Source: a virus. Taken from it: a stretch of 64,000 nt of DNA. Both the position numbers and the translations under genes were made by a program. The notes under the pieces are model-generated. The model did no database searches, was not told where the DNA came from, and was given only the letters and a program-made list of their open reading frames with translations. The stretch is taken from the IMG/VR virus record IMGVR_UViG_3300045996_001561, positions 15,345-79,344 of that record. One strand, written 5' to 3'. Below, one piece after another: positions 12,788 to 43,055 of this stretch (position 1 is the stretch's first letter; every line of letters starts with the position of its first letter).

Positions 12788-12834
12788 TGGTTTCCTCCTA
12801 CCGCTACGGCTAGCTTCCGTACTAGCCTATAGCT

Positions 12835-12863
12835 ACTATACCATACCCGTAGGCGATTGTCAA
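12835..12863 (-). promoter_or_regulatory. sigma70-type early promoter
   Basis: TTGACA-N17(TGG)-TATAGT. Confidence 0.85.
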
Positions 12864-12867
12864 TAGG

Positions 12868-13038
12868 CTAGTACGCTACCCTATAGGCGCTACCCGCGCC
12901 TAGTGGCCAGTACCCCGTATAGGTACCCCAAGCGCTACGGTACTGTACCCGTACCCCGGCTACCCGCCTAGCCGCTAGCCGCCGTACCCGCGCGCCGCGC
13001 GATAGGTACCCCGTACCCCGGCCGCCTAGCCTAGTCAT
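12868..13038 (-). CDS. 56-aa basic protein (below the ORF-track cutoff)
   Basis: MTRLGGRGTGYLSRGARVRRLAARRVAGVRVQYRSAWGTYTGYWPLGAGSAYRVAY, filling the space between promoters 13112 and 12863. Confidence 0.5.
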   Translation of the reverse strand: MTRLGGRGTGYLSRGARVRRLAARRVAGVRVQYRSAWGTYTGYWPLGAGSAYRVAY

Positions 13039-13083
13039 ACCCTACCCCCTACCGCTACCGTACCTACCTACCTAACTACCGCT

Positions 13084-13112
13084 ACTATAGCATACCCGTA
13101 CGCCATTGTCAA
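13084..13112 (-). promoter_or_regulatory. sigma70-type early promoter
   Basis: TTGACA-N17(TGC)-TATAGT. Confidence 0.85.
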
Positions 13113-13202
13113 CTACCTACGCGCGGGGTAGCTACGGTACTAGGCTATAGCGGCGCGCGGGTAGGTATACGGCTAGTACGGTACTACGGCTATACCTACC
13201 CC

Positions 13203-13231
13203 TTGACATACCCGTACGGCTATGGTAGTAT
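13203..13231 (+). promoter_or_regulatory. sigma70-type early promoter
   Basis: TTGACA-N17(TGG)-TAGTAT. Confidence 0.85.
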
Positions 13232-13305
13232 AGCGGTACTAGGGTAGTACGGGGTAGCGGGTACCCCGGCCTAGCGGGTAGGAAAGGGGGTAGCCTATAG
13301 GGGGG

Positions 13306-13334
13306 TTGACAATCACGGTACGCTATGGTAGGGT
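13306..13334 (+). promoter_or_regulatory. sigma70-type early promoter
   Basis: TTGACA-N17(TGG)-TAGGGT. Confidence 0.75.
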
Positions 13335-13398
13335 ATACCTAGAGCGGGGTACGGGTAGCGCGGTACGGAACGCGCGGTACCCCGTACGGAGGAAACCA

Positions 13399-13734
13399 AT
13401 GCACGGCGTGACAACTGAAGAGCGGTGTTCCTGCGGCGAGTACTCACTCGCTGGGGGTGGGACGATCTGCGCCTCGGAAGCTCGGGCAATCGAGGAGGAG
13501 GCGGTTCGGAGCCACTATGAGGTCGCCTATGACGAGGTCATGCCATTCCTCGTCGAGATGTACCGAGGCGTGGTGGAAGAGGATCGCTCGGCCAACACCT
13601 TGATGGCGGTCGTTAGAGCAGCCCAGCTTGCGCTCATGAACCCCGACATCACGGTCGATTGGGTCAAGGAGCAGTACGAGGACGTTGAGTTCGGAAATCG
13701 CGCGCAAAAGGCGCTCGATCCTCGGGTGGTCTAG
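13399..13734 (+). CDS. Small early protein
   Basis: SD CGGAGGAAACC; start MHGVTTEERCSC. Confidence 0.7.
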   Translation: MHGVTTEERCSCGEYSLAGGGTICASEARAIEEEAVRSHYEVAYDEVMPFLVEMYRGVVEEDRSANTLMAVVRAAQLALMNPDITVDWVKEQYEDVEFGNRAQKALDPRVV

Positions 13735-13761
13735 ACAAGCGCCCACAATTCAGGCTCGGTA

Positions 13762-13826
13762 GGGGTACCCTCGGTACCCCGCTGGGTCGTGAGAAACGTA
13801 CAGGGGTACCCTCCTTCGGGTACCCC
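13762..13826. terminator. Paired hairpins between convergent genes
   Basis: GGGGTACC-ctc-GGTACCCC (13762-13780) and GGGGTACCC-tccttc-GGGTACCCC (13803-13826). Confidence 0.6.
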
Positions 13827-13846
13827 CAGGAATCCGAACGTTCGTG

Positions 13847-14110
13847 CTACGGCACGATCTCCCACGCCGCGTCCTCGGGGTCGTAGGAAAACGCCTCGCC
13901 GTTGGCGCAGATGGCCGTGGCTGACCCATCCTCAAAGACTCGGAGGACTTCGCAATCCGGGGTTAAAAGACTCTGAACGTAGCGTTCGTGCGCGTTCAGA
14001 AATCGCGCCATCGCGTAGTCCGGCTCGGGCGGAACGTGGGCCGACGCGCTCCCCGTACCCAAAACCGCCGCAATCCCGAATGCCGCTACCGCGTACCGTA
14101 CCTTCCGCAT
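13847..14110 (-). CDS. Small secreted early protein
   Basis: Sec-type signal MRKVRYAVAAFGIAAVLGTGSASA; own promoter. Confidence 0.7.
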   Translation of the reverse strand: MRKVRYAVAAFGIAAVLGTGSASAHVPPEPDYAMARFLNAHERYVQSLLTPDCEVLRVFEDGSATAICANGEAFSYDPEDAAWEIVP

Positions 14111-14149
14111 CGCCTACCCCTTTCGTACGTACCTTTTTCAACTAGGGGT

Positions 14150-14178
14150 ACTATAGCATACCCGGCCTAGTTTGTCAA
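14150..14178 (-). promoter_or_regulatory. sigma70-type early promoter
   Basis: TTGACA-N17(TGC)-TATAGT. Confidence 0.85.
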
Positions 14179-14215
14179 GGGGTACCTATAGGGAGAATAG
14201 CCTACCCCCTACCCC

Positions 14216-14244
14216 TTGACAAACTGGTAGGGGTATGGTACTAT
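14216..14244 (+). promoter_or_regulatory. sigma70-type early promoter
   Basis: TTGACA-N17(TGG)-TACTAT. Confidence 0.85.
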
Positions 14245-14312
14245 AGCCGTAGTTGAAAAAGGGTAGCGGGTAGCGGTAGCGGTACCGTACGCGCTACCCG
14301 GAGGGTACGAAG

Positions 14313-14594
14313 GTGGATTGCCCCACAATGGAAGAGGAAGCGCGGGAAGCGGTAGGTATCGCTTTCTGGCGGGATCACGGCGACGACGTCGAGGCATTGA
14401 CCTCCGCGATCGAAACCGGGAAGATCGAGGCTCGGACGTGCTTCGACGCCATCCTCGCTCGGAAATCCTGGCGAAACGCGGTCGATATCGATTACGCGGC
14501 CGAGGCGGAAGTCGAGTACAACTTGGCCGAGTTGTGGTGGGATCTGCAGCATCCAGATCGGGAATTCCTCGACGCCATGCCCCTGGTCGGATAA
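14313..14594 (+). CDS. Small acidic early protein
   Basis: Own promoter and SD GGAGG; strongly acidic. Confidence 0.7.
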   Translation: MDCPTMEEEAREAVGIAFWRDHGDDVEALTSAIETGKIEARTCFDAILARKSWRNAVDIDYAAEAEVEYNLAELWWDLQHPDREFLDAMPLVG

Positions 14595-14614
14595 TCCGTA
14601 CAACGCACCGAATC

Positions 14615-14689
14615 GCTCGGGTTCCCTCGGGAATCCGGGCTTTTCGGGGTGACAGGTGTTGGGAGTCCTCGGGATTTCCCAAGGACTCC
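14615..14689. terminator. Paired hairpins between convergent genes
   Basis: GCTCGGGTTCC..GGAATCCGGGC followed by TTTT, and GGGAGTCCT..AGGACTCCC. Confidence 0.6.
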
Positions 14690-14697
14690 CCGTGGGT

Positions 14698-14964
14698 TCA
14701 AAACCGCTCGGGTAGGTTTCCGTAGCGTTCAAGGAGGAAGATCTGATCGTCCAGATCCGGCTCCTTTGGCGTGGGATCGGCTCGGCGGCTCGGGTAGATT
14801 CGCTCAAATTCGTCCAGATCGGGGTCGTCTCCGTACAAGGCTCGGAGCGTCTCCCAAATCCCCACCGCTCGACCGAATTCGTAGGGGTTGGCGTGGTTCA
14901 TCTCCACGTTCGCGCGTCGGATCAGGTTTCCGACCTTTTCGCGCTGGGTGATCGGTATCGCCAT
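14698..14964 (-). CDS. Small early protein
   Basis: SD AAGGAGGAG; start MAIPITQREK. Confidence 0.7.
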   Translation of the reverse strand: MAIPITQREKVGNLIRRANVEMNHANPYEFGRAVGIWETLRALYGDDPDLDEFERIYPSRRADPTPKEPDLDDQIFLLERYGNLPERF

Positions 14965-15001
14965 CGGCTCCTCCTTTTTCCGTACCTTCCAACGTGGGGG
15001 T

Positions 15002-15030
15002 ATAGTACCATACCCGTATGCTTTTGTCAA
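15002..15030 (-). promoter_or_regulatory. sigma70-type early promoter
   Basis: TTGACA-N17(TGG)-TACTAT. Confidence 0.85.
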
Positions 15031-15067
15031 GGGGTAGGGGTGGGGTATTTTGCTACGGCTATACCCC

Positions 15068-15096
15068 TTGACAAACTAGTAGGGGTATGCTATAGT
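15068..15096 (+). promoter_or_regulatory. sigma70-type early promoter
   Basis: TTGACA-N17(TGC)-TATAGT. Confidence 0.85.
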
Positions 15097-15152
15097 AGCC
15101 ACAGTTGGATCGGGGTACGGAACCCAGATCCGGGTAGACGAAGGAGGAAACG

Positions 15153-15428
15153 GTGAAATTGGATAAGGCGAAGAAGGAATTGGTCAAGTCGTTGCTGGCG
15201 GAATCCGCGCAAGCGGTCGAGGATGCCAGAAAAGCCGACCGGGAAGCCAAGACCGGCTCCAAGACCCGATTTGAGCGGGTTCGGCTCCAAGGCGTCGAAA
15301 CCGGGATCACCACGGCGCTGATCGCGATCTTTGGCGAGGATGCGGTGGCGCTCGTCGAGGACGAGATCACCACGGAGAAGGAGAAGGCGGAACTTGCCGC
15401 GCAGGAGCCGGTTGAGGACGCCGCCTAG
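15153..15428 (+). CDS. Small helical early protein
   Basis: SD GGAGGAAAC; GTG start. Confidence 0.75.
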   Translation: MKLDKAKKELVKSLLAESAQAVEDARKADREAKTGSKTRFERVRLQGVETGITTALIAIFGEDAVALVEDEITTEKEKAELAAQEPVEDAA

Positions 15429-15434
15429 ACCCTC

Positions 15435-15515
15435 GGGGGTACCCTCGGAAGCGGGGGTACCCTCGTCTGCGCCCAGAACGCGGGCAAAGAGCCACTCCCC
15501 AGGCATCCTGGGGAG
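15435..15515. terminator. Paired hairpins between convergent genes
   Basis: GGGGGTACCCTCG-gaag-CGGGGGTACCCTC and CTCCCCAGG-cat-CCTGGGGAG. Confidence 0.55.
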
Positions 15516-15530
15516 GCTCGGGGTCGTGGC

Positions 15531-15683
15531 CTAGAGCGGGAATCGGTAGGATCGACCCATACGCACCGATGCAAGATAGGATCGACCAACGTTGGCGCGG
15601 CGTGCGGCTCGGTACGACCAGATGCCAGCAACTCGCTTGCGGTGGTAGCGGTAGATCTTCCGCACGATCCAGGGGGTTTCCAT
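15531..15683 (-). CDS. 50-aa basic early protein
   Basis: SD TCGGAGGAAACC; start METPWIVRK. Confidence 0.6.
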   Translation of the reverse strand: METPWIVRKIYRYHRKRVAGIWSYRAARRANVGRSYLASVRMGRSYRFPL

Positions 15684-15735
15684 AGGGTTTCCTCCGATCT
15701 TTGCCGGGGTGCCGTACCCCGATTCCGTAGTTCCT

Positions 15736-15764
15736 ATACTACCATACCCGTAGGAAAGTGTCAA
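15736..15764 (-). promoter_or_regulatory. sigma70-type early promoter
   Basis: TTGACA-N17(TGG)-TAGTAT. Confidence 0.85.
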
Positions 15765-15779
15765 GGGGTAGAATAGGGG

Positions 15780-15808
15780 TTGACAAACGTACGCGGGTAT
15801 GGTAGTAT
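15780..15808 (+). promoter_or_regulatory. sigma70-type early promoter
   Basis: TTGACA-N17(TGG)-TAGTAT. Confidence 0.85.
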
Positions 15809-15855
15809 TCACCTACGTTGAAGGGGGTACGGAAACCCCGAAGGAGGAATCGCCC

Positions 15856-16110
15856 ATGAAGCGCGAGGATTACGAGTTCCTGATCGAGAAAGCCGAGAAG
15901 GTGGTACGGGATCACCAAACGGCCGTGGACGTGGTCGAAGGCGTCGATAATTCGCGGGAATCGGTCATGGCCATGAAGCTGGCCGAGGCGCGGATGGAGG
16001 GATTTTTCGACGGAATCTTCGCCGCCTCGCGGGATTCCTGCCTCGCGGGATTTGTGCGCCAAGATGCCAAGTTTCGGATGGATCGGGATCGGATTCTCGA
16101 TCTGAGCTAG
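15856..16110 (+). CDS. Small early protein
   Basis: SD AAGGAGGAA; start MKREDYEF. Confidence 0.7.
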   Translation: MKREDYEFLIEKAEKVVRDHQTAVDVVEGVDNSRESVMAMKLAEARMEGFFDGIFAASRDSCLAGFVRQDAKFRMDRDRILDLS

Positions 16111-16128
16111 CACCGCTCGGATCAGCAC

Positions 16129-16208
16129 GGAAACCGTGGGGAGATCCCCACGGTTTCCTGCCTCCCTGGAAAGGCACGACGAAGGGTACCCCGAGGATGG
16201 GGTACCCT
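16129..16208. terminator. Paired hairpins between convergent genes
   Basis: GGAAACCGTGGGGA..TCCCCACGGTTTCC and AGGGTACCCC-gaggat-GGGGTACCCT. Confidence 0.6.
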
Positions 16209-16222
16209 CGGTGGCGTGGTTT

Positions 16223-16510
16223 CTACCAGCCTTCCTCCCACTCTCGCTCGGTCGTGCAGCCCACGATCGCGCATGGCTCGACGTAGGAGTAGCGACCAAA
16301 GGCGATGCCGCCTTCGATCCCGACCATCTCTAGCTTGCGGACGTTGCCGACCAGCCGCAGATCCGTGGGATCGGTGCCTTGCGCGCGGTAGTCCGCGTAG
16401 TGATCCTTTTCCTCTTTCAGGAAGGCTTGGGCGTCCTTCTTGGTGCGGAAGGTTCCCTGGTATTCGTCGTTGACGCCGTCCCCTAATCCCGCGTACCCGT
16501 GGTAATGCAT
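16223..16510 (-). CDS. Small early protein
   Basis: Own promoter; SD AAAGGAG. Confidence 0.7.
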   Translation of the reverse strand: MHYHGYAGLGDGVNDEYQGTFRTKKDAQAFLKEEKDHYADYRAQGTDPTDLRLVGNVRKLEMVGIEGGIAFGRYSYVEPCAIVGCTTEREWEEGW

Positions 16511-16545
16511 GCGCGTCTCCTTTCTGCGACCTTCAACGTGGGGGT

Positions 16546-16574
16546 ACTATAGCATACGGGTACGCCATTGTCAA
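16546..16574 (-). promoter_or_regulatory. sigma70-type early promoter
   Basis: TTGACA-N17(TGC)-TATAGT. Confidence 0.85.
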
Positions 16575-16577
16575 GTC

Positions 16578-16606
16578 TTGACAATCGGGGTAGGGTATGG
16601 TAGTAT
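16578..16606 (+). promoter_or_regulatory. sigma70-type early promoter
   Basis: TTGACA-N17(TGG)-TAGTAT; -35 is only 3 bp from the divergent -35. Confidence 0.85.
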
Positions 16607-16653
16607 ATAAGCGTGGTAGGGAAACGGAACCCTACGGATCACGGGAGGATGCG

Positions 16654-16887
16654 ATGAAAGTTGATCCGATCTATGCGTACGCGCTTGATGGGCATCTGGA
16701 GGATTGCCAGGGGAATCACCTGGGAACCTATCGGGTGATCTCCCGGTGGCGCGTGGGATCGCGCTACATGGGCTGGTATACGTGGCACGCCATCCGGGCG
16801 AGGATCCGGGGTCTCGATGGGGAGATGTGGGCGCGGTACAACGTCGACAACGGCTCGGCCGTCGCGCTGCGACCGGTGCGATCATGA
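16654..16887 (+). CDS. Small early protein
   Basis: SD GGGAGG; start MKVDPIY. Confidence 0.7.
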   Translation: MKVDPIYAYALDGHLEDCQGNHLGTYRVISRWRVGSRYMGWYTWHAIRARIRGLDGEMWARYNVDNGSAVALRPVRS

Positions 16888-17078
16888 GTCTCACGCCAAA
16901 CCCGACGTTCGATCCGAAAACGGGGGAGGATCTGCCTCCCCACGTCCGCTACGATGGCTGGTTCCATACGTGCGGCGACTGTGGGAATGATGATGCGGTG
17001 TTCATCGTCACCCTCGACGGCGAGGATCACTTCTCCTGTCGATCATGCGTCTATGCGCACTATCTCGCTATCGCGTAG
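16884..17078 (+). CDS. Small zinc-finger protein
   Basis: CGDC..CRSC; ATGA-coupled. Confidence 0.6.
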   Translation: MSLTPNPTFDPKTGEDLPPHVRYDGWFHTCGDCGNDDAVFIVTLDGEDHFSCRSCVYAHYLAIA

Positions 17079-17112
17079 GAGGCTCGGCGCTTCGCACCAG
17101 AAGGAGGCTCGG

Positions 17113-17367
17113 ATGGCTCGGTATTGCCGGGATCGGTACGAGGGTCAGCTTCGTGCCAACATCTACGGTGCCACCAAATACGTGGTGGCTGATGTGGAAA
17201 CCGGGAGGATCGTCGCGGAACTCGACGAGAACGATCAGCTCCTGACGCATGAGAGCGCCCGATCCCTCGCCGCAGGGATGAATGCGATCATCTGGCAGCA
17301 GCGTCGACGTCATGGGCGATGCGCGGGGCATCCCAGGACTCGGGATCGGGGTCAGTCCTCGGTCTAA
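17113..17367 (+). CDS. Small early protein
   Basis: SD AAGGAGG; start MARYCRDR. Confidence 0.65.
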   Translation: MARYCRDRYEGQLRANIYGATKYVVADVETGRIVAELDENDQLLTHESARSLAAGMNAIIWQQRRRHGRCAGHPRTRDRGQSSV

Positions 17368-17380
17368 CCCTCGGGAACAC

Positions 17381-17412
17381 GGATCACCCCCTGGAATTCC
17401 AGGGGGTGATCC
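17381..17412. terminator. Perfect 32-bp palindrome between convergent genes
   Basis: GGATCACCCCCTGGAATTCCAGGGGGTGATCC. Confidence 0.65.
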
Positions 17413-17421
17413 TCGGTGCGG

Positions 17422-17652
17422 CTAGCTGATCCGGGTGTTCCAGAGATTGTCCTTGATCTTCTGCAATCGGTAGGATCGCTTGAGGGCGCTCGGGCGATGC
17501 TTCCCGTTGGCCATCAGATCGTTCTCGCACCGCTCGATCTCGGCGTCGATGCGTCCGACCTCGTCGCGCAACGCTTCGACTAAGGCGTCCACGCGCGACT
17601 GGATCGCATCCTCCGTCAGATTCCGTAGCGGGATCTTGTACCCGGCATCCAT
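17422..17652 (-). CDS. Small coiled-coil early protein
   Basis: SD CGGAGGAA; start MDAGYKIP. Confidence 0.7.
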   Translation of the reverse strand: MDAGYKIPLRNLTEDAIQSRVDALVEALRDEVGRIDAEIERCENDLMANGKHRPSALKRSYRLQKIKDNLWNTRIS

Positions 17653-17701
17653 CCTGATTCCTCCGTTTCCTTTCCGGGGTTCCGTACCCCAACGTGCGTC
17701 A

Positions 17702-17730
17702 ATACTACCATACTGGTACCCTATTGTCAA
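17702..17730 (-). promoter_or_regulatory. sigma70-type early promoter
   Basis: TTGACA-N17(TGG)-TAGTAT. Confidence 0.85.
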
Positions 17731-17733
17731 GGC

Positions 17734-17762
17734 TTGACAAACTACCCCGACTATGGTAGTAT
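17734..17762 (+). promoter_or_regulatory. sigma70-type early promoter
   Basis: TTGACA-N17(TGG)-TAGTAT. Confidence 0.85.
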
Positions 17763-17797
17763 AGAGGCAGTTGAGGATGGTACGGAAAGGAGGCAGC

Positions 17798-18163
17798 ATG
17801 ATCCACGGGAACGAGAACCCCGGCAAGGTGGCCGAGGCGATTGCGGAGGCGTTGCGCACCGCATCAGAGCATGGGGAGTTCGTCGATACGGACGACGAGC
17901 CACCCCGGATCGAGGTCGATCATGGGTTTCAACCCTTCCTCACGATCCGGTTTCGGAATGGCGCGGAATTCCAACTGACTCCGGTCAGATCGGCATGGCC
18001 GTCTGAAGGCTCGGCCCAATTCCTCGGCTGCGATCAGTGCGGCGAGACGGTGTGCGAATGCTGCGAACGCTGCGGTCGACCACCGGGGTACGAGCATGAT
18101 CGCTCGGGGTGCGTCGAGTACATCGCGCCGGAAGGTGATGAGCGGTATCGGGAGGGATCATGA
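17798..18163 (+). CDS. Early protein with Cys-rich C-terminus
   Basis: SD AAAGGAGG; CDQC..CECCERC. Confidence 0.7.
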   Translation: MIHGNENPGKVAEAIAEALRTASEHGEFVDTDDEPPRIEVDHGFQPFLTIRFRNGAEFQLTPVRSAWPSEGSAQFLGCDQCGETVCECCERCGRPPGYEHDRSGCVEYIAPEGDERYREGS

Positions 18164-18360
18164 CCGCATTGGAGGCGATTCGTCGGATCACGGACATCGT
18201 TGAGGCGTGGGAGAACAACCACGATCCCAGCGCCCAGAACGATATCGATACCCTCTACGAGATCCTCGGCATCGCGGGGGAGGTCGAGGAAACCGATCCC
18301 TACGCCCTGACTCCCTCGGAGGAAGATCGCTGGCGGAAAGATCAGGCCCATCCCGCGTAG
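18160..18360 (+). CDS. Small acidic protein
   Basis: ATGA-coupled; SD GGAGG. Confidence 0.65.
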   Translation: MTALEAIRRITDIVEAWENNHDPSAQNDIDTLYEILGIAGEVEETDPYALTPSEEDRWRKDQAHPA

Positions 18361-18435
18361 GACGGATCGGGATCTCCCCCATACCCTCGGTGACATCTGT
18401 CACGCGGGGGTCGGGGTGGTGAAAGGAGAACGATC

Positions 18436-18687
18436 ATGGATCGCTCGGAATGGGTCAGGATCAAGTACCGAGAACTCGATCCCACCGTGGATACCTTCGC
18501 GGATATCCGGGATCACGTTCGGGCATCGCTGCAGGAACAGGTTGACTTCTGGAAGGGTGACACGATCCAGGGTCGGGCCGATGTGGCGCGCCGGAATGCC
18601 CTCGGAGTACCTCCCCTGAATCCCGCGCGGCGTCCAATGGAACGGTGGGCGATCTGCGCGCTCTTTGTCGCGGCCGGGAAGCTGTAG
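18436..18687 (+). CDS. Small early protein
   Basis: SD AAAGGAG. Confidence 0.65.
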   Translation: MDRSEWVRIKYRELDPTVDTFADIRDHVRASLQEQVDFWKGDTIQGRADVARRNALGVPPLNPARRPMERWAICALFVAAGKL

Positions 18688-18690
18688 GGG

Positions 18691-18719
18691 TTGACAATAC
18701 CCCGCGTATATGGTACTAT
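18691..18719 (+). promoter_or_regulatory. sigma70-type early promoter
   Basis: TTGACA-N17(TGG)-TACTAT. Confidence 0.85.
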
Positions 18720-18769
18720 ACAACCAGTCAAGTGGGGGAACGGAAGCCCTCGGACGGAAGGAGGAAACA

Positions 18770-19225
18770 GTGATCAGGCCAGGAATGAAGATCACCCTAG
18801 AGAGTCTGGAAGAGATCGGGCCGTTCGCATGGCCGGGAGGGTACGTCAATACCTTCATCGACCGGGATGGCAGCATCCTGTGCTTCGATTGCGCCAAGAA
18901 GGATCTGCAGGACGGAAACCCGTTCGGATCGATCGCGTACGCGGGGTACGAGGAACGCGACCCCGAGGATGGCGACGTGATTTGCGATGGATGCGGACAG
19001 GAGGTCGATCCGGCGATTCGCGGTCGAGACGACGATCCCGCCACCGCCTGCCGCTACCGCGTACGCGGGAAGGATGTTGCCGAGTTTCACACGAACGTGT
19101 GGGACGAGGTGATCACCGAGGCTCGGAAGCTGCGCGGTGAGGGGATCAGAAACATCGCCGTCGAGGAACGGGATCACGGGCCGGGGTTTGGGCCGGGACA
19201 TTGGGTGGAGGTGATCTGGTCGTGA
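18770..19225 (+). CDS. Zinc-binding phage protein (AWPGGY..LCxxC..CxxC family)
   Basis: FAWPGGY..DGSILCFDCA..VICDGCG; SD GGAGGAAAC. Confidence 0.7.
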   Translation: MIRPGMKITLESLEEIGPFAWPGGYVNTFIDRDGSILCFDCAKKDLQDGNPFGSIAYAGYEERDPEDGDVICDGCGQEVDPAIRGRDDDPATACRYRVRGKDVAEFHTNVWDEVITEARKLRGEGIRNIAVEERDHGPGFGPGHWVEVIWS

Positions 19226-19533
19226 ACGCATGGACAGGTCTGCGGCTCTCGGATGCGCGGCGACAACTGGTCGGCGTCAAATCCCAGATCGATCGCTCGA
19301 TCCAAGCGGAGGACGACGACAACTGGCTCCGCGATGCGCCCCAAGATCCCGAAGCGTACGTGTTGCTCAATGAGATCGTGGGTCTCGTCAACACCCTCGA
19401 TCAGAAGCTGCTTGACCTCGTCTTGAGAAAGGATCACGATGCTGTTCCAGAAGAAGAAGCCAGCCAAGAAGGGTCGGTCGCGCACATCATCGACCCGACC
19501 AGCCCCAGCGCGGAGGAACTCTGGGGTCAGTAA
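19222..19533 (+). CDS. Hypothetical protein
   Basis: GTGA-coupled; SD GGAGGTG. Confidence 0.6.
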   Translation: MNAWTGLRLSDARRQLVGVKSQIDRSIQAEDDDNWLRDAPQDPEAYVLLNEIVGLVNTLDQKLLDLVLRKDHDAVPEEEASQEGSVAHIIDPTSPSAEELWGQ

Positions 19534-20038
19534 GATCCCTCGGGGGTACTACGAGAACTTTGGCACCGAGTACCACAACACGCGCGGGATGGGGTCAACC
19601 TATATCGCGGCGGCAGGATCGGGATGTCTGGGGGTCTCATGGAAGTTCTTTCTGATGGTGATGCTGATCGGGATTGTGATTGCCGCCTTCTGAGGGAGGC
19701 CCAGGCCCAGATCAGCACGGCCTGGATCGACGGCGACACGGACACCCTCGTCCAGTGGCTGGGCGCACTCGATCGCTCGATCCAGGCGAACGATCCACTG
19801 CAGAACGGTGCGGCCTTCCTGATCGAGTACACCGTGGCAGGGTTGGAGATCCTCCTGTTTGATCCCACGGTGCATGCATTCTATTGCACGGCACTCCTAC
19901 CCCAATTCTGGCCCCAACGCCCCACAGAGGCCACGGAGCGCGTCCACAGCGGGGGTTCCGTGGATGACGACCGGCAACGTCGTGCCGACGTGCTGCGGTT
20001 TCGCATCTTCGGGCCGTGGGAAGGGATGCCGGGGGACA

Positions 20039-20067
20039 TTGACAAATACGCGGGGGTGAGCTACACT
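20039..20067 (+). promoter_or_regulatory. Promoter of the candidate small RNA
   Basis: TTGACA-N17-TACACT; the only copy lacking the TG extended -10. Confidence 0.75.
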
Positions 20068-20073
20068 ACGCAG

Positions 20074-20206
20074 GCAACTAAAGGGAGCTTCCTCTAAGCT
20101 CCTGGGGGGTCGACACCGGCGATGCCGGAACCACTCGATCCCCAAAGGTTTCCTCCGAGTTGCACCTTCCGTGTCGGGAACCCCGGTCGCAAGGCTGGGG
20201 TTCTTG
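20074..20206 (+). ncRNA. Candidate structured antisense small RNA (~133 nt)
   Basis: Own promoter and no SD/ORF. Helices: GCAACT/AGTTGC, GGAGCTT/AAGCTCC, GGGGGTCGA/TCGATCCCC with inner CCGGC/GCCGG, and a 13-bp terminal stem with GCAA tetraloop. G-U pairs work only on the + strand. Confidence 0.75.
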
Positions 20207-20258
20207 GCGTCCCGATCACCCCCTGTGTATGTATGGGAAACTGGTTTCCATAATACCC

Positions 20259-20287
20259 TTGACAATACCCGTATGGTATGGTAGTAT
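20259..20287 (+). promoter_or_regulatory. sigma70-type early promoter
   Basis: TTGACA-N17(TGG)-TAGTAT. Confidence 0.85.
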
Positions 20288-20336
20288 TGTCAGTGGTGAA
20301 GGGTACGGAACCCTTCGCACGGAAGGAGGAAACGCG

Positions 20337-20780
20337 ATGCTGCAGACACAGGTCGATCATCAGTTTGGGGTGGGCGACCGGGCCATCCTGAAGCTGCGGC
20401 CGGGACGCAAGTTTGCCTACACCGGGTGGAAGGACGGCGATCTCGTCATCATCGATGCGGTCAACTTCCGCATCAACGCGGACGGATCGACGGTCGTCTT
20501 TTACGCGGTCACCCACACGCCCGGTGGGGGGCACGTCCACGTCGGTGCCAATGAGGTGGTGCCGCTGCTCGATCGCCCCACACCCCCACAGAAATTCCTG
20601 ATCTACGGCGGTGCGTACATCGCGCTGCTGGAGAAGGCGCTCGACGGCGGGCCATTCGCTCGGGCCATTCGCAACGCCACGCGCGCCGGAAACGATGCCT
20701 GCGGGTACGAGATCGTCCCGCGCAACGCCGAGGACGCCGCCCTGATCGCGCAGGCGGTGCGGGATGTGATGGTGCGCTGA
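20337..20780 (+). CDS. Hypothetical protein (SH3/KOW-like N-terminus)
   Basis: SD GGAGGAAAC; HQFGVGDRAIL..GWKDGD resembles the next gene's HAFAIGDAVML..GWVNGE. Confidence 0.65.
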   Translation: MLQTQVDHQFGVGDRAILKLRPGRKFAYTGWKDGDLVIIDAVNFRINADGSTVVFYAVTHTPGGGHVHVGANEVVPLLDRPTPPQKFLIYGGAYIALLEKALDGGPFARAIRNATRAGNDACGYEIVPRNAEDAALIAQAVRDVMVR

Positions 20781-21010
20781 TGCCTGAAACCACCTTCCAG
20801 CACGCCTTTGCCATCGGGGATGCGGTCATGCTGAACATGCGGGAGACGAAGCAGCGCAACGGCTGGGTGAACGGCGAGACGGTCTACATCCAGACCGTCA
20901 GCTTCCGCACGGCTCGGGAGGGATCGTACACCTTCTACACCGTGGGTATGGAGCCGGTCAGCACGTCCGTGATCAAGGTTCGGGATATCGACGTGGAGGC
21001 GGCAACGTGA
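20780..21010 (+). CDS. Hypothetical protein, paralog of the upstream N-domain
   Basis: TGATG-coupled; shared motif. Confidence 0.65.
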   Translation: MPETTFQHAFAIGDAVMLNMRETKQRNGWVNGETVYIQTVSFRTAREGSYTFYTVGMEPVSTSVIKVRDIDVEAAT

Positions 21011-21441
21011 ACATCTACGGACACACCTATCAGCAGCGCCGCGAGATCCAGCGGCAAGCGAATAAAATCTCGGCCCTCTGGCTCTCCCCTCGGGGCAAGC
21101 TCTATGGCCTGGGGGAGATCGAGGTCAAGGCGGCACGGGAGTATGCGTCCCACAACGAGTACAAAGGCGATCCAGGGGGGTGGATTCGGCGCACCGCATC
21201 GGATCGGGTAATCACGCAGGGGTGGAGAAACTTCTTCCTCGCCCGCACGCGGATGATCCTCGACTGGTACACCCAGCGCCTGACCGCCTTCCCCAGCTTC
21301 GCGGCCATGATCGATGCGCCCTCCACGTACCGGCCGACGCTGATGCAGACCTCGACGGACTGGCGGTGCTGGCTGCTGGCCTTCCACTACGATCAGACGA
21401 TGGCCTATCGGGGTGATCCGAGGCGGGTCTATCGTGGCTAG
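21007..21441 (+). CDS. Hypothetical protein
   Basis: GTGA-coupled; SD GGAGG. Confidence 0.6.
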   Translation: MNIYGHTYQQRREIQRQANKISALWLSPRGKLYGLGEIEVKAAREYASHNEYKGDPGGWIRRTASDRVITQGWRNFFLARTRMILDWYTQRLTAFPSFAAMIDAPSTYRPTLMQTSTDWRCWLLAFHYDQTMAYRGDPRRVYRG

Positions 21442-21653
21442 GGGGAGGGTTCGGCTCAAGCGCGGGGAGCAGCGCGTCACCACGTACCACCGGGGTGACG
21501 TCACGGCGATCATCAGCGGACGCAGCAGCGGGTACTACACCATGACGATCAACGGGTTCTTCGGGGGGATCGCCCACAGTCGGCATGAGGCCAAGTGGAT
21601 GATCCTCTCGGGCCACTACGTCAACGGGCCTGCGCTCCTACGGAGGATTCCGC

Positions 21654-22289: not shown

Positions 22290-22292
22290 TAT
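22264..22292 (+). promoter_or_regulatory. sigma70-type promoter
   Basis: TTGACA-N17(TGG)-TAATAT. Confidence 0.85.
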
Positions 22293-22340
22293 AGGGACAA
22301 TCGAGATGGGGAGCGGAAGCCCCACAGAAAGGAGGAACGG

Positions 22341-23879: not shown

Positions 23880-23967
23880 CGATCCCTACGAGGTCGCCAT
23901 CATGGCGGTCGGCGCGATTCTGGTCTACCTGGCGATCATTGGGCTTGTCGCACTGATCTGGCGTTAG
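23872..23967 (+). CDS. 31-aa single-TM membrane peptide
   Basis: MDDDPYEVAIMAVGAILVYLAIIGLVALIWR; SD GGAGG. Confidence 0.6.
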   Translation: MDDDPYEVAIMAVGAILVYLAIIGLVALIWR

Positions 23968-23979
23968 ACGGAGGGAGAT

Positions 23980-24141
23980 GTGAACGGGACGCTTTCTGCA
24001 CTGGCCGTCGCACTTGCCATCATCGCGGTGGGGTTCGTGCTGCGAGTCAACGACAAGATCGACACGCCGACGCAGATCGTCATCATGATTCTGGCGATCG
24101 CGATCGAAATCGTGTTGCTCCAGATATGGCGGGATCGATGA
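23980..24141 (+). CDS. 53-aa two-TM membrane protein, copy 1
   Basis: MNGTLSALAVALAIIAVGFVLRVNDKIDTPTQIVIMILAIAIEIVLLQIWRDR. Confidence 0.7.
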   Translation: MNGTLSALAVALAIIAVGFVLRVNDKIDTPTQIVIMILAIAIEIVLLQIWRDR

Positions 24142-24198
24142 GCGACACAAGGCGATCATCGGACTTGTCGCGCTGATCTGGAGATAGACGGAGGGAGC

Positions 24199-31726: not shown

Positions 31727-31740
31727 GAGGGAGAGAGCAT

Positions 31741-34671: not shown

Positions 34672-35127
34672 ATGAGTAACACGATGCCACGACCGATGGA
34701 CAGTGAGGCCGAGGCGCGCGTCGAACGCTGGCGCAAGCTAGAGGCCCAGGGCATCAACCGCTCCGAGATTGCCCGACGCGAGGGCATCAGTCGGCAGCGA
34801 GTGACGGCCAAGCTGGGGCCACTCCCCGACCGGGGGGGTCGCAAGGAGAAGCGCATCTACGTCCATGAGGGCGATTACCGCAAGGCGGCGGAAGTCGCCA
34901 AGAGCCTCGGCCTGCGGTTGCGGGCCGGGGAAACCTCGGGCGAGGGGTCGGTGAGTCTGCTCGTCGAGCTTATCGGTCGCGGGCAGCTAGTGGTGTCGCG
35001 GCGGACGGAAACCGCGAGGCCGAAGGAGGAAACGGATGGTGCGCCCACCGCACCAGTGGATGGAAGAGGCGATGACGCGACACCTGAGGGGGCTGGCAAC
35101 GTCGTTCCAGATGATGCAGCGGCTTAA
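34672..35127 (+). CDS. HTH DNA-binding protein
   Basis: GINRSEIARREGISRQRVTAKL. Confidence 0.7.
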   Translation: MSNTMPRPMDSEAEARVERWRKLEAQGINRSEIARREGISRQRVTAKLGPLPDRGGRKEKRIYVHEGDYRKAAEVAKSLGLRLRAGETSGEGSVSLLVELIGRGQLVVSRRTETARPKEETDGAPTAPVDGRGDDATPEGAGNVVPDDAAA

Positions 35128-39890: not shown

Positions 39891-39893
39891 GGG

Positions 39894-39922
39894 TTGACAT
39901 ACCGGGAGGATTATGGTAGTAT
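39894..39922 (+). promoter_or_regulatory. sigma70-type promoter
   Basis: TTGACA-N17(TGG)-TAGTAT. Confidence 0.85.
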
Positions 39923-39960
39923 TGTCGGGTAGTCAGGAACGGAACCTGACCGGAGGAACG

Positions 39961-40188
39961 ATGAACGACTATCCCGACTGCAGCGCCCAGCCGAACACCG
40001 ACGAGCGTTGTGAGCCGACCGACGAGGATCTCGCCGCTATCGCGGGGTGGACGTGGGCAGGCTACCAGCGCATGTACCAAGACCATCTCTGCGCCGTGGC
40101 ATCCCAGGAAGAGCGGTGGGGGAACTGGAAGGCCGGACTTGGGTACACACTCGATGCCCACGCATTGCACGGAGCAGATGGTGGATAG
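39961..40188 (+). CDS. Small hypothetical protein
   Basis: Leader hairpin and SD CGGAGGAA. Confidence 0.65.
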   Translation: MNDYPDCSAQPNTDERCEPTDEDLAAIAGWTWAGYQRMYQDHLCAVASQEERWGNWKAGLGYTLDAHALHGADGG

Positions 40189-40322
40189 GCCGGAATGCAC
40201 GCAGGAGCGAGAGGCATTTGAGAGGGCTAGAGCCACCTATCACCGCGCTCGTCGGAATGCTGCGGCCGAGAAGAAGCACCTGAAGCGCATGACCCTCGCG
40301 CTCCGAGCTTTTTTGGTGTGTC

Positions 40323-41326
40323 GTGGGCGCTAATCTCAGCACCCTCTCGGTCGTGATGACCGACGACGAGTTTCGCTTTGCCGCGAATCTGGCCGAGGAA
40401 CGGGGTGAGGTTGCCGGGGTCGCCAGCCTCGTCCAGAACGTCTGGTTTGCGTGGCTGCAGGATCAGGGATACGTCGATCCATCGATCATCAACCCCGGCC
40501 CCGAGTACGAGGTTATTGACACCTGTCCGTGGTGCAAACGAAAGGTGGTGCCAAGCAAATCAACGATCACCGAGGACTTCCCGCAGACACAGGATGGTGT
40601 TGAAAAGATCATTCGCATCCTGTGGCATGGCAAGTGTCTGAAGAACGCTGAGAAGCGGCTCAATGAGGATCTTGACGACGGTCAGGACGATCCTCGTTAC
40701 GGAGGCTACTAGTGCAAGGCACACGATTCAGTAAGCGGGGCAATCCCATCGTTGCGGGGTCGCACTCCCTGTTCCCCGACGACGGAAAAGGTGGTATCCG
40801 CATGGAGGAAATCCTCCGTTCGGAGATGATGCACGGGGAACCGGAGAACGTCAAAGTCTGCCAGTCGTGGATGACCAAGCTGGGTCAGGCGATTGCCGAG
40901 ACGGATCGCCGCCTGACCGAGATGAGTTCTCGCGGCATCCGCATGATGCACCCCAGCGGTCGCTACTTCACCGATCTGGAGAAGTCGGAGCTTCGGGTGT
41001 CGCTGATCGAGCAGAAGAACCAGCTTATCGCGCGATCGCAGGATCTCCGACGCTGGCGCAACGAGCGCGTGCGGCAGGCCAAGGCGGGGGAGATTTCCGA
41101 CCCCAACGTCTATAGCACGAAGCTCTCGGTCAACGTCCGCAACATGCGGGAAGCGGCCAAGCGGTATGGGCTACTGGAGGATCTCTACGAGGCCGTCAAG
41201 GTCTATCACTACGGCATGGGGGAGGACGAGGACGACCGACCGCAAGATATCGACGGTCAACGCTACGACGCGATGATCGAGGCGCTCGATGCGCTCATGG
41301 CGGATTGTGGCGATGAGCGCCCGTAG
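40323..41326 (+). other. Two hypothetical CDS (40323-40712, 40712-41326)
   Basis: Coupled ORFs. Confidence 0.55.
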
Positions 41327-41909
41327 CATCCACGTCGCCAGCAATCAGGACAAGGATCCCTGGTGCCGGGTCGGGGAGGAATACGAGCGGGCCTTCGTCG
41401 AGATCATGCGAACGCAGCTTCGTCTCCCCATCCACATCAACCCTGCGAAGGGGATCGACAAGTACGCGGCCGATCTGGTCTACGGCGACGTGTTCACCCC
41501 ATTCCCCAATGTGGCCGACCTGAAAACCCAGACCACCCCGTTCTTCACGGCGGATCGCTATGGTATGGATCCCCGCTTCACGGTGGTGTTGAACCGCAAG
41601 GATGTGGAGCGATACGACGCCTATTACGACTGGAGTATGTCGCTGTTCTTCTGGGTCGATTGGCACGTCACGGAGATGTTCAAGCAGCGCATCCCCTACT
41701 TCGGTGGCATCTTCGTCTGCAGCCTGGGTGACGTGATGCACATGATCAGCAACGATGCGCCCGAGCATGTCTATCAGCAGCGCGCCGAGGATGGGCAGGG
41801 GAACGCGCGATCGTCCTTCCTCCTGTCCCTTGGTGGCATGACCAACATGGCATCCTCCACCGAACCAGACTGGTGGGGTGCCGTACCGAAAGGGATCGTC
41901 GAGCGATGA
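41313..41909 (+). CDS. Putative PD-(D/E)XK nuclease
   Basis: GEEYERAF..YAADL..ADLKTQTTPFF. Confidence 0.55.
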   Translation: MSARSIHVASNQDKDPWCRVGEEYERAFVEIMRTQLRLPIHINPAKGIDKYAADLVYGDVFTPFPNVADLKTQTTPFFTADRYGMDPRFTVVLNRKDVERYDAYYDWSMSLFFWVDWHVTEMFKQRIPYFGGIFVCSLGDVMHMISNDAPEHVYQQRAEDGQGNARSSFLLSLGGMTNMASSTEPDWWGAVPKGIVER

Positions 41910-42578
41910 GTGATGGCAGCCCCAGCGCCAGAAGTGACGTCCTGACCCTCCTGACCATGCTGGAGGTGTTAGCGCAAGACAATAACCCACACGGGATTAC
42001 CGACACCCAGACATTGATCGCGTGGCTCTTTGAGGGCCATCCGTCCACGGTGGCCGAGTACCGGCGCATCCGCAACACCTATCTGACGTCCGGGATCCCG
42101 AACCGAGAGCCAGTCACCCGAGAGCGACTGGTGAATGCCATCAGCCCCATCGTCCACGCGGCCAAGAGCTATGGCGAGGCTCCGACTCACGAAACGTGCG
42201 GGCGGTGCGTCACCACATCCCATCTGATCGTCGATGCGATCGCTCCCCTGGTCGGGCGATGGATCGAAGATCACGAACCGGACGAGGACGACCGGCCATC
42301 CGTCGATGACGATCTTCTGGAGGAACAGTGGGTGAAGGAGATGGTGCGATGACCCTCCCCACCTACGCCTACTTCCAGATCCGTCCCTACCACTCCCGCT
42401 ACCGGGTGGCCCGGTCGTGGGCCGCAGGGTACTACCGCAGCGAGTTCGTCGGGGAAGTGGAGCGCGTCACCCAGAGCAAGTGGAAGGCCACCCTCTATAC
42501 CGACCCCACCACCGAGGGGTTTGGGCGCACCCGCAATCTAGCAATGGCCCGCGTCTGGGAACTCGTTGGGGGTGAAGG

Positions 42579-43007
42579 ATGAAAGCAATCTCACTGTGGC
42601 AACCGTGGGCCAGTCTGGTTGCCACGCGCAACAAGTGGGTTGAAACCCGTTCGTGGCAAACCCCGTACCGTGGGCCGATCCTGATCCATGCGGCCAGGCG
42701 GAAAGTCACCCGAGACGAGCGAGAGTACTTCGAATCGGTCGCCGCGTTTCAGGACGCTATGCGAATGGGTGAGATCAGTTGGGATACCATGCCCTATGGT
42801 CAGATGGTTGCCTTGGCGGTTCTTGGCAGGGTCGTTCCGACCGAGGCAATTCGGGACGCTATCCCCGACATGGAGTATGCCTTCGGGGATTACTCCAACG
42901 GCCGGTGGGCTTGGGTCTTTACCCGCATTGACCCCATCGATCCATTTCCCTACAAGGGAGAGCGCGGACTCTTTGACCTACCCTACGGGTTGACAATACC
43001 CCGCTAG
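42579..43007 (+). CDS. ASCH domain protein
   Basis: MKAISLWQPWASLV..KWVETRSW.TPYRGPILIHAA..KGERGLF. Confidence 0.9.
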   Translation: MKAISLWQPWASLVATRNKWVETRSWQTPYRGPILIHAARRKVTRDEREYFESVAAFQDAMRMGEISWDTMPYGQMVALAVLGRVVPTEAIRDAIPDMEYAFGDYSNGRWAWVFTRIDPIDPFPYKGERGLFDLPYGLTIPR

Positions 43008-43018
43008 TGTGGTAACAT
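42990..43018 (+). promoter_or_regulatory. sigma70-type promoter
   Basis: TTGACA-N17(TGG)-TAACAT. Confidence 0.85.
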
Positions 43019-43055
43019 TCTTTCAGGTTGGAACGGAAGCAACCTCGGAGGAACG

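Follow-up and report, generated by a model that had tools for sequence, protein, structure and literature searches.

An ACGGAA-loop hairpin shared by early-gene leaders of an uncultured soil phage, and a candidate small RNA complementary to them

The DNA window analysed in this study comprises 64,000 bp (bases 15345-79344) of a 79,344-bp IMG/VR virus record that is rated 99% complete and has a GC content of 62%; it belongs to an uncultured soil phage, here called G000. Within this window, many early genes are preceded by a short hairpin whose stem differs from gene to gene and whose loop is nearly constant, which raises the question of what the conserved loop is for and what reads it. A preliminary description of the same DNA had regarded the hairpin as a genome-wide leader motif and RNA-level operator, the target of an RNA encoded at 20074 or, alternatively, a CsrA/RsmA-type or boxB-like protein site. 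The present analysis of the sequence indicates that approximately 16 early genes share an RNA leader composed of an ACGGAA-loop hairpin and an extended ribosome-binding site, and on balance it favours the view that the hairpin serves as the first-contact site for a phage-encoded anti-leader small RNA (sRNA) that then covers the Shine-Dalgarno (SD) sequence.

Anatomy and distribution of the leader

The minus strand carries the structural and other late genes of G000, in two blocks of the window (1-12.3 kb and 45.2-63.6 kb). Between them are an early region of small genes encoded on both strands (12.5-17.7 kb) and a long early/replication block on the plus strand (17.8-45.1 kb). A search for TTGACA-N17-TAnnnT identified 27 sites, nearly all of which have a perfect -35 box and a TG-extended -10 box, and a separate promoter scan of the 12.3-32 kb region yielded 26 sites, compared with 6.1 +/- 2.5 in shuffled sequences. 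Fifteen promoters are followed, 8-15 nt 3' of the -10 box, by a hairpin of 5-9 bp, and a sixteenth hairpin (34996) has an SD but no promoter. After each hairpin come 1-12 nt, an SD of the GGAGGAA(A)C type and the start codon. The promoters of these cassettes have the consensus TTGACA-N17-TGnTAnnnT. The individual sites are as follows.

12808-12827 (-): hairpin GGCUAGU-ACGGAA-GCUAGCC; promoter 12835-12863(-), SD GGAGGAAACC, GTG at 12787
13358-13375 (+): hairpin GCGCG-GUACGGAA-CGCGC with a longer outer stem GGGGUAC/GUACCCC; promoter 13306-13334, SD CGGAGGAAACC, ATG at 13399
15107-15131 (+): hairpin GGAUCgGGG-UACGGAA-CCCaGAUCC; promoter 15068-15096, SD GGAGGAAAC, GTG at 15153
15704-15722 (-): hairpin UCGGGG-UACGGCA-CCCCGG with a variant hexamer; promoter 15736-15764(-), SD UCGGAGGAAACC, ATG at 15683
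15723-15728: unstructured ACGGAA ahead of the 15704-15722 (-) hairpin
15824-15839 (+): hairpin GGGGU-ACGGAA-ACCCC; promoter 15780-15808, SD GGAGGAAU, ATG at 15856
16616-16635 (+): hairpin GUAGGG-AAACGGAA-CCCUAC; promoter 16578-16606, SD GGGAGGAU, ATG at 16654
17674-17692 (-): hairpin UUGGGG-UACGGAA-CCCCGG; promoter 17702-17730(-), SD CGGAGGAAU, ATG at 17652
18733-18759 (+): hairpin UGGGGG-AACGGAAG-CCCUCG; promoter 18691-18719, SD GGAGGAAAC, GTG at 18770
18754-18759: second ACGGAA of the 18733 leader, unstructured, adjoining SD GGAGGAAAC
20296-20324 (+): hairpin GUGAAGGG-UACGGAA-CCCUUCGC; promoter 20259-20287, SD GGAGGAAAC, ATG at 20337
20319-20324: second ACGGAA of the 20296 leader, unstructured, adjoining SD GGAGGAAAC
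22307-22324 (+): hairpin UGGGG-AGCGGAAG-CCCCA, hexamer GCGGAA; promoter 22264-22292, SD GGAGGAAC, ATG at 22341
24840-24858 (+): hairpin UGGGGU-GACGGAA-GCCCCG; promoter 24802-24830, SD GGAGGAAAC, GTG at 24881; the operon includes a 252-aa gene (24985-25743), the orthologue of which in the related phage G001 also has a cassette
25791-25809 (+): hairpin GGGAGG-AACGGAA-CCUCCC; promoter 25751-25779, SD GGAGGAAACC, GTG at 25829 (ParB-like gene)
30464-30497 (+): 9-bp palindromic stem GCUCCCGGG/CCCGGGAGC, loop with UACGGAG; promoter 30435-30463, SD ACUCGGAGGAAC, ATG at 30512
34996-35017 (+): promoter-less, operon-internal hairpin UCGCGG-CGGACGGAAA-CCGCGA; SD GGAGGAAAC, ATG at 35036
39932-39950 (+): hairpin GUCAGG-AACGGAA-CCUGAC; promoter 39894-39922, SD CGGAGGAAC, ATG at 39961
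43025-43045 (+): hairpin AGGUUG-GAACGGAAG-CAACCU; promoter 42990-43018, SD CUCGGAGGAAC, ATG at 43056
14978-14983 (-): unstructured ACGGAA, 5 nt (AAAAA) before SD GGAGG; promoter 15002-15030(-), ATG at 14964
17782-17787 (+): unstructured ACGGAA directly before SD AGGAGG; promoter 17734-17762, ATG at 17798

All leader sites named in the preliminary description could be located in the sequence, none more than a few bases from its listed position. The loop hexamer is ACGGAA in 13 of the 16 hairpins; GCGGAA (22313-22318), ACGGCA (15710-15715(-)) and ACGGAG (30480-30485, in the larger loop of a 9-bp palindromic stem) occur once each. Unstructured copies of ACGGAA directly 5' of the SD were found at four sites (14978(-), 17782, 18754 and 20319), the first two of which had already been recorded. 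The term 'genome-wide' is too broad, as the cassette is confined to the early region between 12.8 and 43 kb. As stated previously, the motif is absent before the structural and late genes of the window, and three consensus promoters of the late arm (5378-, 3715- and 2967-) likewise lack it.

The motif lies on the sense strand in every case, at a variable distance of 13-30 nt from the -10 box. If transcription is taken to start 7 nt past the -10 box, 0-9 nt separate the hairpin from the predicted 5' end. In predicted minimum-energy folds, the hairpin forms in most leaders, and the extended SD is mostly unpaired. Because one copy has no promoter and the unstructured copies adjoin the SD, the element appears to belong to the translation-start region and not to the promoter. 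It is also predicted to act as RNA, because an operator in duplex DNA would conserve the arms and not an asymmetric centre.

One promoter of the early region stands apart from these units. Promoter 13203 (+) is followed by approximately 70 nt (13203-13305) containing neither an SD nor an open reading frame (ORF), and then by promoter 13306; the two promoters may be a tandem pair, or the first may yield a very short transcript.

Enrichment, covariation and SD extension

As a bare word, ACGGAA is mildly enriched in the window (41 copies versus 30.5 +/- 5.3 expected). Counted in loops of <=10 nt closed by >=5 pairs, it occurs 13 times, far more often than in 300 dinucleotide shuffles (2.25 +/- 1.5; maximum 7), which answers the background comparison that the preliminary description had proposed. 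In the same hairpin count, looped ACGGAA outranks all 60 hexamer permutations.

The stems vary in sequence and stay paired, as had been noted earlier. The 20 hairpins of G000 and G001 (16 and 4, respectively) have 16 distinct 5' arms, and in a partner-shuffle control 4.80 of 5 positions are paired, versus 3.02 after shuffling (maximum 3.75 in 5000 shuffles). Pair counting in an alignment of 18 hairpins, which leans towards structure because the alignment was fitted to the model, gave 95.3% paired cells versus 59.9 +/- 3.6 in shuffled alignments, none of 500 shuffles being as high. The same alignment contains 35 double-sided changes versus 11.7, with compensatory changes in five of the six pairs, and its paired cells fall to 30-56% in slid registers. 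Covariation of the stems, strand specificity and the association with translation starts support the proposal of an RNA-level element. A covariance model of the hairpin (R1), also proposed previously, could be built, but it was too short to discriminate over the whole window: true sites outside its seed scored E values of 0.015-6.5, amid false matches. The paralogous leaders of one uncultured genome suffice, by covariation, to define an RNA element.

The hexamer is accompanied by a particular SD. The GGAGGAA extension is present in 14 of 17 motif leaders and in none of the eight promoter-driven leaders that lack the motif (Fisher's test, 1.5e-4). In its usual full form, the extended SD of motif leaders is GGAGGAAAC(C); the window contains 11 copies of GGAGGAAAC, of which nine belong to motif leaders, another falls on the minus strand (20148-20156) and the last is intragenic. 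The bases 3' of GGAGG (the AAAC extension) have no partner in the usual 16S tail, and therefore another factor selects these bases. Co-occurrence of the hexamer and GGAGGAA is the pattern that would be expected from one trans-acting factor with two recognition parts.

A candidate anti-leader sRNA at 20074-20206

A promoter with no SD-led ORF behind it (20039) precedes a sequence that mirrors both parts of the leader.

20039-20067 (+): promoter TTGACA-N17-TACACT of the candidate sRNA, with consensus -35 box and spacing and without the TG extension
20074-20206 (+): candidate sRNA of approximately 133 nt without a convincing ORF

The predicted fold of the 20074 RNA is more stable than that of shuffled sequences (z -4.48) and than that of its reverse complement (-65.5 versus -50.8 kcal/mol). 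It includes a 5' hairpin with the loop CCUCU (20091-20095), a GC-rich hairpin and a closing stem. Two stretches are predicted to be open, both with an unpaired probability of approximately 0.7-1.0: GGUUUCCUCC (20147-20156), the complement of GGAGGAAACC, and, 10 nt after it, UUCCGU (20167-20172), the complement of ACGGAA. Read antiparallel, these two seeds are the mirror image of 'ACGGAA ... GGAGGAAACC'. A terminal 14-bp stem with a GCAA cap (20175-20206) follows directly after UUCCGU.

Perfect complements to the 20074 RNA extend over 7-12 nt at the cassette SDs (5-6 nt in three leaders) and over 6-9 nt at the hexamer in most cassette leaders, whereas those at 83 other gene starts are typically 4-6 nt long (p 6e-10 and 3e-8). 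A structure-aware cofold ddG (the change in predicted free energy) also separates cassette leaders (-11.6) from other genes (-6.8; p 3e-6) and from other GGAGG starts (-8.3; p 0.001). Plain duplexfold of the whole sRNA against the leaders gave no discrimination in this GC-rich genome, and seed matching and cofolding were used instead. The variants GCGGAA and ACGGAG, with A-to-G changes at hexamer positions 1 and 6, can still pair with the seed via G-U, whereas ACGGCA has a mismatch with UUCCGU. In silico, the seeds complementary to the ribosome-binding site (RBS) are accessible, and the earlier suggestion that the leaders are the target of the 20074 RNA is supported to this extent, as well as by a joint change of seeds and targets in G001.

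Two side observations concern the ends of the transcripts. In 13084-17762, the predicted first transcribed bases of nine promoters are conserved as A(C)GUUG(A/G), as exemplified by 15068+, 15780+, 17734+, 17730-, 16574-, 15030-, 14178- and 14216+. The AGUUG of these leader starts is also the 3' strand of the closing stem of the sRNA (GAGUUGC with 5' GCAACU); competition of the leaders for the 5' end of the sRNA is therefore conceivable, but AGUUG may simply be a sequence preferred for initiation. T-run terminators are not enriched in 12300-32000 despite the many independent promoters (11 versus 10 in shuffles), and the transcription units, including the terminal stem of the sRNA, seem to end in GC-rich hairpins without U tracts.

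Comparison with phage G001

A relative of G000, phage G001, was available for a two-phage comparison. Its genome (80,353 bp, 55% GC, with terminal repeats) encodes a portal protein 54% identical to that of G000 and is syntenic with G000 over the virion and replication genes; the early genes of the two phages are, with exceptions, barely alignable. G001 has approximately 13 promoters of the TTGACA-N17-TAnnnT type. Behind four of these, hairpins lie at +2 to +7; their stems are unrelated, their loop hexamer is UCGGAA, and an SD comes 8-9 nt after them. One of these hairpins is upstream of the orthologue of gene 24985, the operon of which in G000 begins with the 24802/24840 cassette. The extended SD of G001 is GGGAGUCUC, in the form GGGAGUCUCA(C) at at least five starts, or GGAGGAAUCAG.

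A candidate sRNA is also present in G001, behind the promoter TTGACA-N17-TACATT. This RNA is approximately 150 nt long, has no ORF (fold z -3.39), ends in a canonical terminator with a U run and lies in a 500-bp stretch with a non-coding GC pattern on both strands. It contains GUGAGACUCCC close to the 5' end and then CUGAUUCC, and UUUCCGA lies six bases ahead of the terminator. The promoters and first hairpins of the two sRNAs align. In both phages, therefore, a candidate sRNA gene with promoter, terminator and non-coding sequence is recognisable in silico.

The seeds and targets differ between the phages in a matching manner. Base 1 of the hexamer is A in 15 of 16 G000 hairpins and U in all four of G001 (p 2.6e-4), and the corresponding sRNA base is U in the former and A in the latter. 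The seed/target pairs are ACGGAA/UUCCGU and GGAGGAAACC/GGUUUCCUCC in G000, and UCGGAA/UUCCGA and GGGAGUCUCAC/GUGAGACUCCC in G001, indicating that the SD extension and the anti-SD seed changed jointly. When the sRNAs were swapped, complements of >=9 nt at sites combining SD and start numbered 18 in the own versus 6 in the other genome, and 14 versus 2 in the reciprocal case. Seed and target thus co-vary between relatives, here two phages.

Several searches accompanied this comparison. G001 was the sole phage found by a scan for the sRNA-promoter pattern. Another anti-leader candidate, at G001 73784(-), was discarded, since the plus strand at this place is the genuine leader of a gene. Directly after the sRNA terminator of G001 lies a second TTGACA-N17-TACATT promoter (67950-68016, equal to L129 7950-8016 (-)), followed by a hairpin of approximately 50 nt and a U run without an ORF; this may be a second small RNA, and no counterpart of it was seen in the window. 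IMG/VR scans for the combination of promoter, ACGGAA and GGAGGAA returned unrelated leaders, isolated look-alikes (L035, L055/L058) and the L014-type family, all of which were set aside. The latter is an unrelated repeated leader family of contigs L014-L017, L019, L022, L024 and L026-L028 (~47-55% GC), with the form TATGGTAATAT-N7-ACAACGGAA-GGGCnnnnGCCC-...-GGAGGAA-ATG. It occurs twice in L014 and contains an unstructured ACGGAA 5' of a small hairpin.

Proposed mechanism and alternative explanations

Because a small phage RNA mirrors both parts of the leader, the leader set is probably switched in translation as one. In the mechanism that we propose, a sigma-70-type RNA polymerase of the host would start the early transcripts at approximately 26 near-consensus promoters. 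The hairpin would then expose six loop bases for fast first contact with the open UUCCGU of the sRNA, and the anti-SD seed would next pair with the extended SD, thereby blocking ribosome binding. All tagged early messages would be turned down together, with direction, timing and any cofactor inferred; the 5' hairpin probably also stabilises or protects the 5' end of the mRNA. The anatomy of the leaders, their enrichment, stem covariation, complementarity and two-phage co-variation are computed, and from them we infer production of the sRNA, its pairing and its repressive effect.

A broader reading, to which we give slightly less than even weight, is that the early mRNAs of this clade carry a two-part code, consisting of the hairpin hexamer and a phage-specific SD extension, that is read by one master sRNA; code and reader would co-evolve, resulting in a private post-transcriptional switch for approximately 16 genes per phage. 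If this is true, the phage would need no protein regulator to time the shut-off of its early genes: one sRNA, reading a structured tag common to a whole class of messages, would do so in a compact way. Other start-associated repeats, such as the start-associated sequences (SAS) and extended start-associated sequences (ESAS) of other phages, might be accounted for along these lines, and the 'extended SDs' of other phages would gain a concrete and testable explanation. The hexamer/seed pair that differs between the two relatives is a ready-made compensatory-mutation experiment and possibly a source of orthogonal translational switches.

Several points weigh against the sRNA reading. There is some circularity in the complementarity statistics, since the leaders have a consensus in common of which the sRNA locus is in effect an inverted copy. 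The loop contact is just 6-7 nt, and minimum-free-energy cofolds mostly use the SD seed. The terminal stem of the G000 sRNA has no U run, the hairpin is present at just four of approximately 13 G001 promoters, and the co-variation amounts to one evolutionary contrast, because two phages were compared. No RNA runs are listed among the sequencing runs that hold the phage, and the sRNA and the leader 5' ends are predictions. Furthermore, the opposite strand of both sRNA loci resembles a leader followed by a TTG-started ORF (82 aa in G000; 37 aa within a 128-aa ORF in G001), and an antisense gene with the common motif would give the same pattern as an sRNA. These antisense ORFs show no coding-type GC content by codon position, have no promoter and are mutually unrelated, and the 82-aa ORF overlaps the end of a plus-strand gene with a normal coding signature.

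It is possible, albeit rather unlikely in our estimation, that the loop is instead a protein site, either of the CsrA/RsmA type, with a host dimer bridging the GGA of the loop and that of the SD, or for an unrecognised phage RNA-binding protein. The protein would then set the translation or stability of the early messages, and the sRNA complement would be secondary, as a competing anti-leader or a relic. ACGGA fits the A(N)GGA core of CsrA sites, U-ACGGA-A loops close a U-A pair in the fold to leave an ACGGA pentaloop, some leaders contain three GGA motifs, and CGGAA is common to both phages. The leaders also have a loop GGA and an SD GGA within reach of a dimer, a two-site geometry known from the CsrA targets hag of Bacillus subtilis and hcnA of Pseudomonas, but this is a weak criterion because any GGAGG SD contains GGA. 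The phage has no csrA above the cut-off (best match, E 0.018), and neither Pfam nor PHROGs revealed an RNA-binding family among approximately 80 early proteins, none of the small ones being conserved between G000 and G001. CsrA is encoded by one of five Chloroflexota metagenome-assembled genomes (MAGs) with related portals and by 20 of 121 genomes of the candidate host order, and was not found in most of the genomes searched; the CsrA alternative of the preliminary description is thus weakened, with CsrA present in a minority of the best-guess host group. All four G001 loops read UCGGA and do not keep the consensus. Moreover, a reader of GGA leaves unexplained why base 1 of the hexamer is uniform within a phage and different between phages, and why the phage-specific SD extension (AAAC in G000, UCUCAC in G001) is mirrored by the sRNA. 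We consider it distinctly unlikely that the hairpin is merely a 5' stabiliser or insulator against 5'-end-dependent decay that keeps the SD free of structure, the loop and SD being alike by descent of the cassette and the sRNA-like locus being an inverted cassette without function in trans. The position of the hairpins, 0-9 nt from the predicted 5' ends in both phages, the open SD in the folds and the near-identity of the promoter modules agree with this idea, and 5' hairpins combined with strong SDs are established mRNA stabilisers, as in the ompA, ermC and SP82 leaders. However, the stems, promoter spacers and initial bases have fully diverged while the six loop bases are invariant in 13 of 16 hairpins, which indicates selection on the loop itself; the conserved loop exceeds what defines stabilisers, a class that sets no requirement on loop sequence. 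The unstructured and promoter-less copies have no place in a stabiliser, and one would not expect a relic to have retained promoter, terminator and seeds matched to its own phage when the early genes of the two phages can otherwise barely be aligned.

The remaining alternatives concern transcription. A boxB/nut-like loading site for an antiterminator, such as the Arg-rich 56-aa product of 12868-13038(-), which would render the polymerase resistant to termination, appears very improbable. In its favour, the hairpins are close to promoters and, like boxB, combine a conserved loop with a stem of free sequence, and the first early ORF encodes an Arg-rich peptide containing SRGARVRRLAARRV. This ORF, however, has no conserved counterpart in G001 and sits in a 'TA-only' segment of odd composition. 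The loops, which contain NCGGAA and measure 6-10 nt, are not GNRA-like; sixteen sites, each 1-12 nt from an SD, are found instead of one per operon; and some copies at translation starts are unstructured or promoter-less. Many of the units are convergent single genes, where read-through would be harmful, and T-run terminators are not enriched. The suggestion of a boxB-like site is thus weakened, as the element does not resemble a boxB/nut site. Hardly any weight can be given to the idea that a transcription factor binds the element at the DNA level, as an operator or a cruciform just 3' of the promoters. A repressor acting as a roadblock might well sit at positions +1 to +30 of strong promoters, but a DNA-binding dimer reads repeat arms, and in these hairpins the arms vary freely around a fixed asymmetric centre; the motif is confined to the sense strand, lies anywhere from 13 to 30 nt from the -10 box and in one copy lacks a promoter.

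Comparison with known systems

A close parallel to the proposed sRNA is the c4 RNA, which has two seeds and pairs with two short mRNA sites. Like c4, the G000 RNA is predicted to be a phage-encoded, trans-acting small RNA that uses exposed short stretches against two targets, one of them at the RBS, and thereby blocks translation. In both systems, related phages differ in their seeds and targets, and these sequences determine, or in G000 are predicted to determine, the specificity. Whereas c4 acts on a single operon, arises by processing of the very transcript that it targets and controls immunity, the G000 sRNA would have its own promoter and approximately 16-18 dispersed targets, one target site being presented in a hairpin loop with a free stem on early genes of a seemingly lytic phage. 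Among host sRNAs, OxyS and fhlA interact by two-site kissing, and RoxS/RsaE and RNAIII use C-rich seeds that pair with SDs. The proposed G000 system resembles the former in combining a short loop contact (6-9 nt) with a second site at the SD, and the latter in that C/U-rich open seeds would cover the GGAGG of several mRNAs; in kind, it would apply the principle of c4 and of OxyS-fhlA to a whole regulon. These host sRNAs have heterogeneous targets, whereas the G000 leaders share a repeated code, and the seed reaches into the phage-specific SD extension. A 2025 review of phage sRNAs covers cis-antisense and single-target RNAs (sar, OOP, c4, which acts on icd/ant in phages P1/P7, and the PAK_P4 antisense RNAs); the known ones mostly act on one neighbouring gene or on host genes, and the review includes no multi-target anti-leader RNA for a phage's own early genes (PMC12197685).

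Among published start-associated repeats, the nearest is that of Cluster K mycobacteriophages, in which the 13-bp SAS GGGATAGGAGCCC is found at 11-19 gene starts, approximately half of them with an upstream inverted repeat; SAS and ESAS have one orientation and an unknown function, and the authors left open whether the partner is an RNA or protein of the host or the phage (PMC3203893). As in SAS, the repeated motif of G000 covers the SD and bases beyond rRNA pairing. ESAS has conserved 17-bp arms and a variable spacer, whereas the G000 leaders have variable arms, a conserved centre and a different SD word and do not belong to SAS/ESAS. For SAS, no partner RNA has been proposed; for the G000 leaders, there is a candidate sRNA.

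Two protein-binding elements show partial likeness. As in CsrA/RsmA sites, the loop GGA of a short hairpin lies near a GGA-containing SD, and ACGGA matches A(N)GGA; unlike in such sites, the phage has no csrA, the G001 loop reads UCGGA, and base 1 and the SD extension are phage-specific. The likeness to lambda N/boxB lies in a hairpin near the promoter that keeps its loop but not the sequence of its stem. The leaders differ from lambda nut in lacking a GNRA-like pentaloop and in having many copies at translation starts, and no boxA was noticed, although no formal search for it was made. The leaders do not fit lambda-type nut sites well, and the only candidate resembling an arginine-rich motif (ARM) is the unconserved 56-aa ORF.

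The phage, its relatives and its host

The early proteins of G000 are nearly all orphans in Pfam and PHROGs searches; those with an assignment are a ParB-like protein, a helix-turn-helix (HTH) protein, a primase-helicase, a Methyltransf_16-like enzyme and a few nucleases. No tRNAs were found in the window, and no Rfam family reached the gathering score over it, the one match being at chance level (E 0.46, in 12.5-26 kb). Low-depth DNA contigs identical to the window are present in soil/terrestrial metagenomes of four studies and show no strain variation at the hairpins.

No close relatives of G000 were found in the phage database. Cultured-phage matches to the portal, the terminase large subunit (TerL) and the primase-helicase have <=33% identity and mixed hosts. 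The portal homologues form a clade at 50-60% identity, several of them on contigs of 78-80 kb (P0015-P0023), and a metagenome scan with the portal profile retrieved relatives at <=48% identity and one 2-kb piece only. Relatives of the primase-helicase and ParB were rejected as a comparison set, in part because they are too distant. From portal relatives in MAGs, our best guess is that the host perhaps belongs to Chloroflexota, with Thermomicrobiales or Dehalococcoidia likeliest. A search for the host through CRISPR or prophage matches in the DNA of 301 genomes (the class of G004) yielded nothing beyond similarity to prophage genes and short matches attributable to chance; of the short matches, the four best lie outside repeat arrays. 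No use is made here of the unpublished genomes G161 and G202 that came up in this search.

Three early genes deserve mention. The ORF at 12868-13038 (-), behind promoter 13112(-), encodes a 56-aa peptide with 11 Arg that resembles an arginine-rich RNA-binding motif. Gene 24985-25743 (+) encodes a 252-aa protein without a Pfam family and is the most widely conserved early gene of unassigned family in G000. The protein is 47% identical to its G001 counterpart (L129 5226-6005 (-)), with invariant Cys, His and Trp positions between the two, and 29-39% identical to homologues in six further IMG/VR phages; the homologues in distant phages lack the leader cassette. Finally, 21654-22289 (+) in the early block encodes the Methyltransf_16-like enzyme, possibly a protein-lysine methyltransferase (Pfam E 5e-12; weak PrmA-like match), whose clusters in the protein atlas are all viral.

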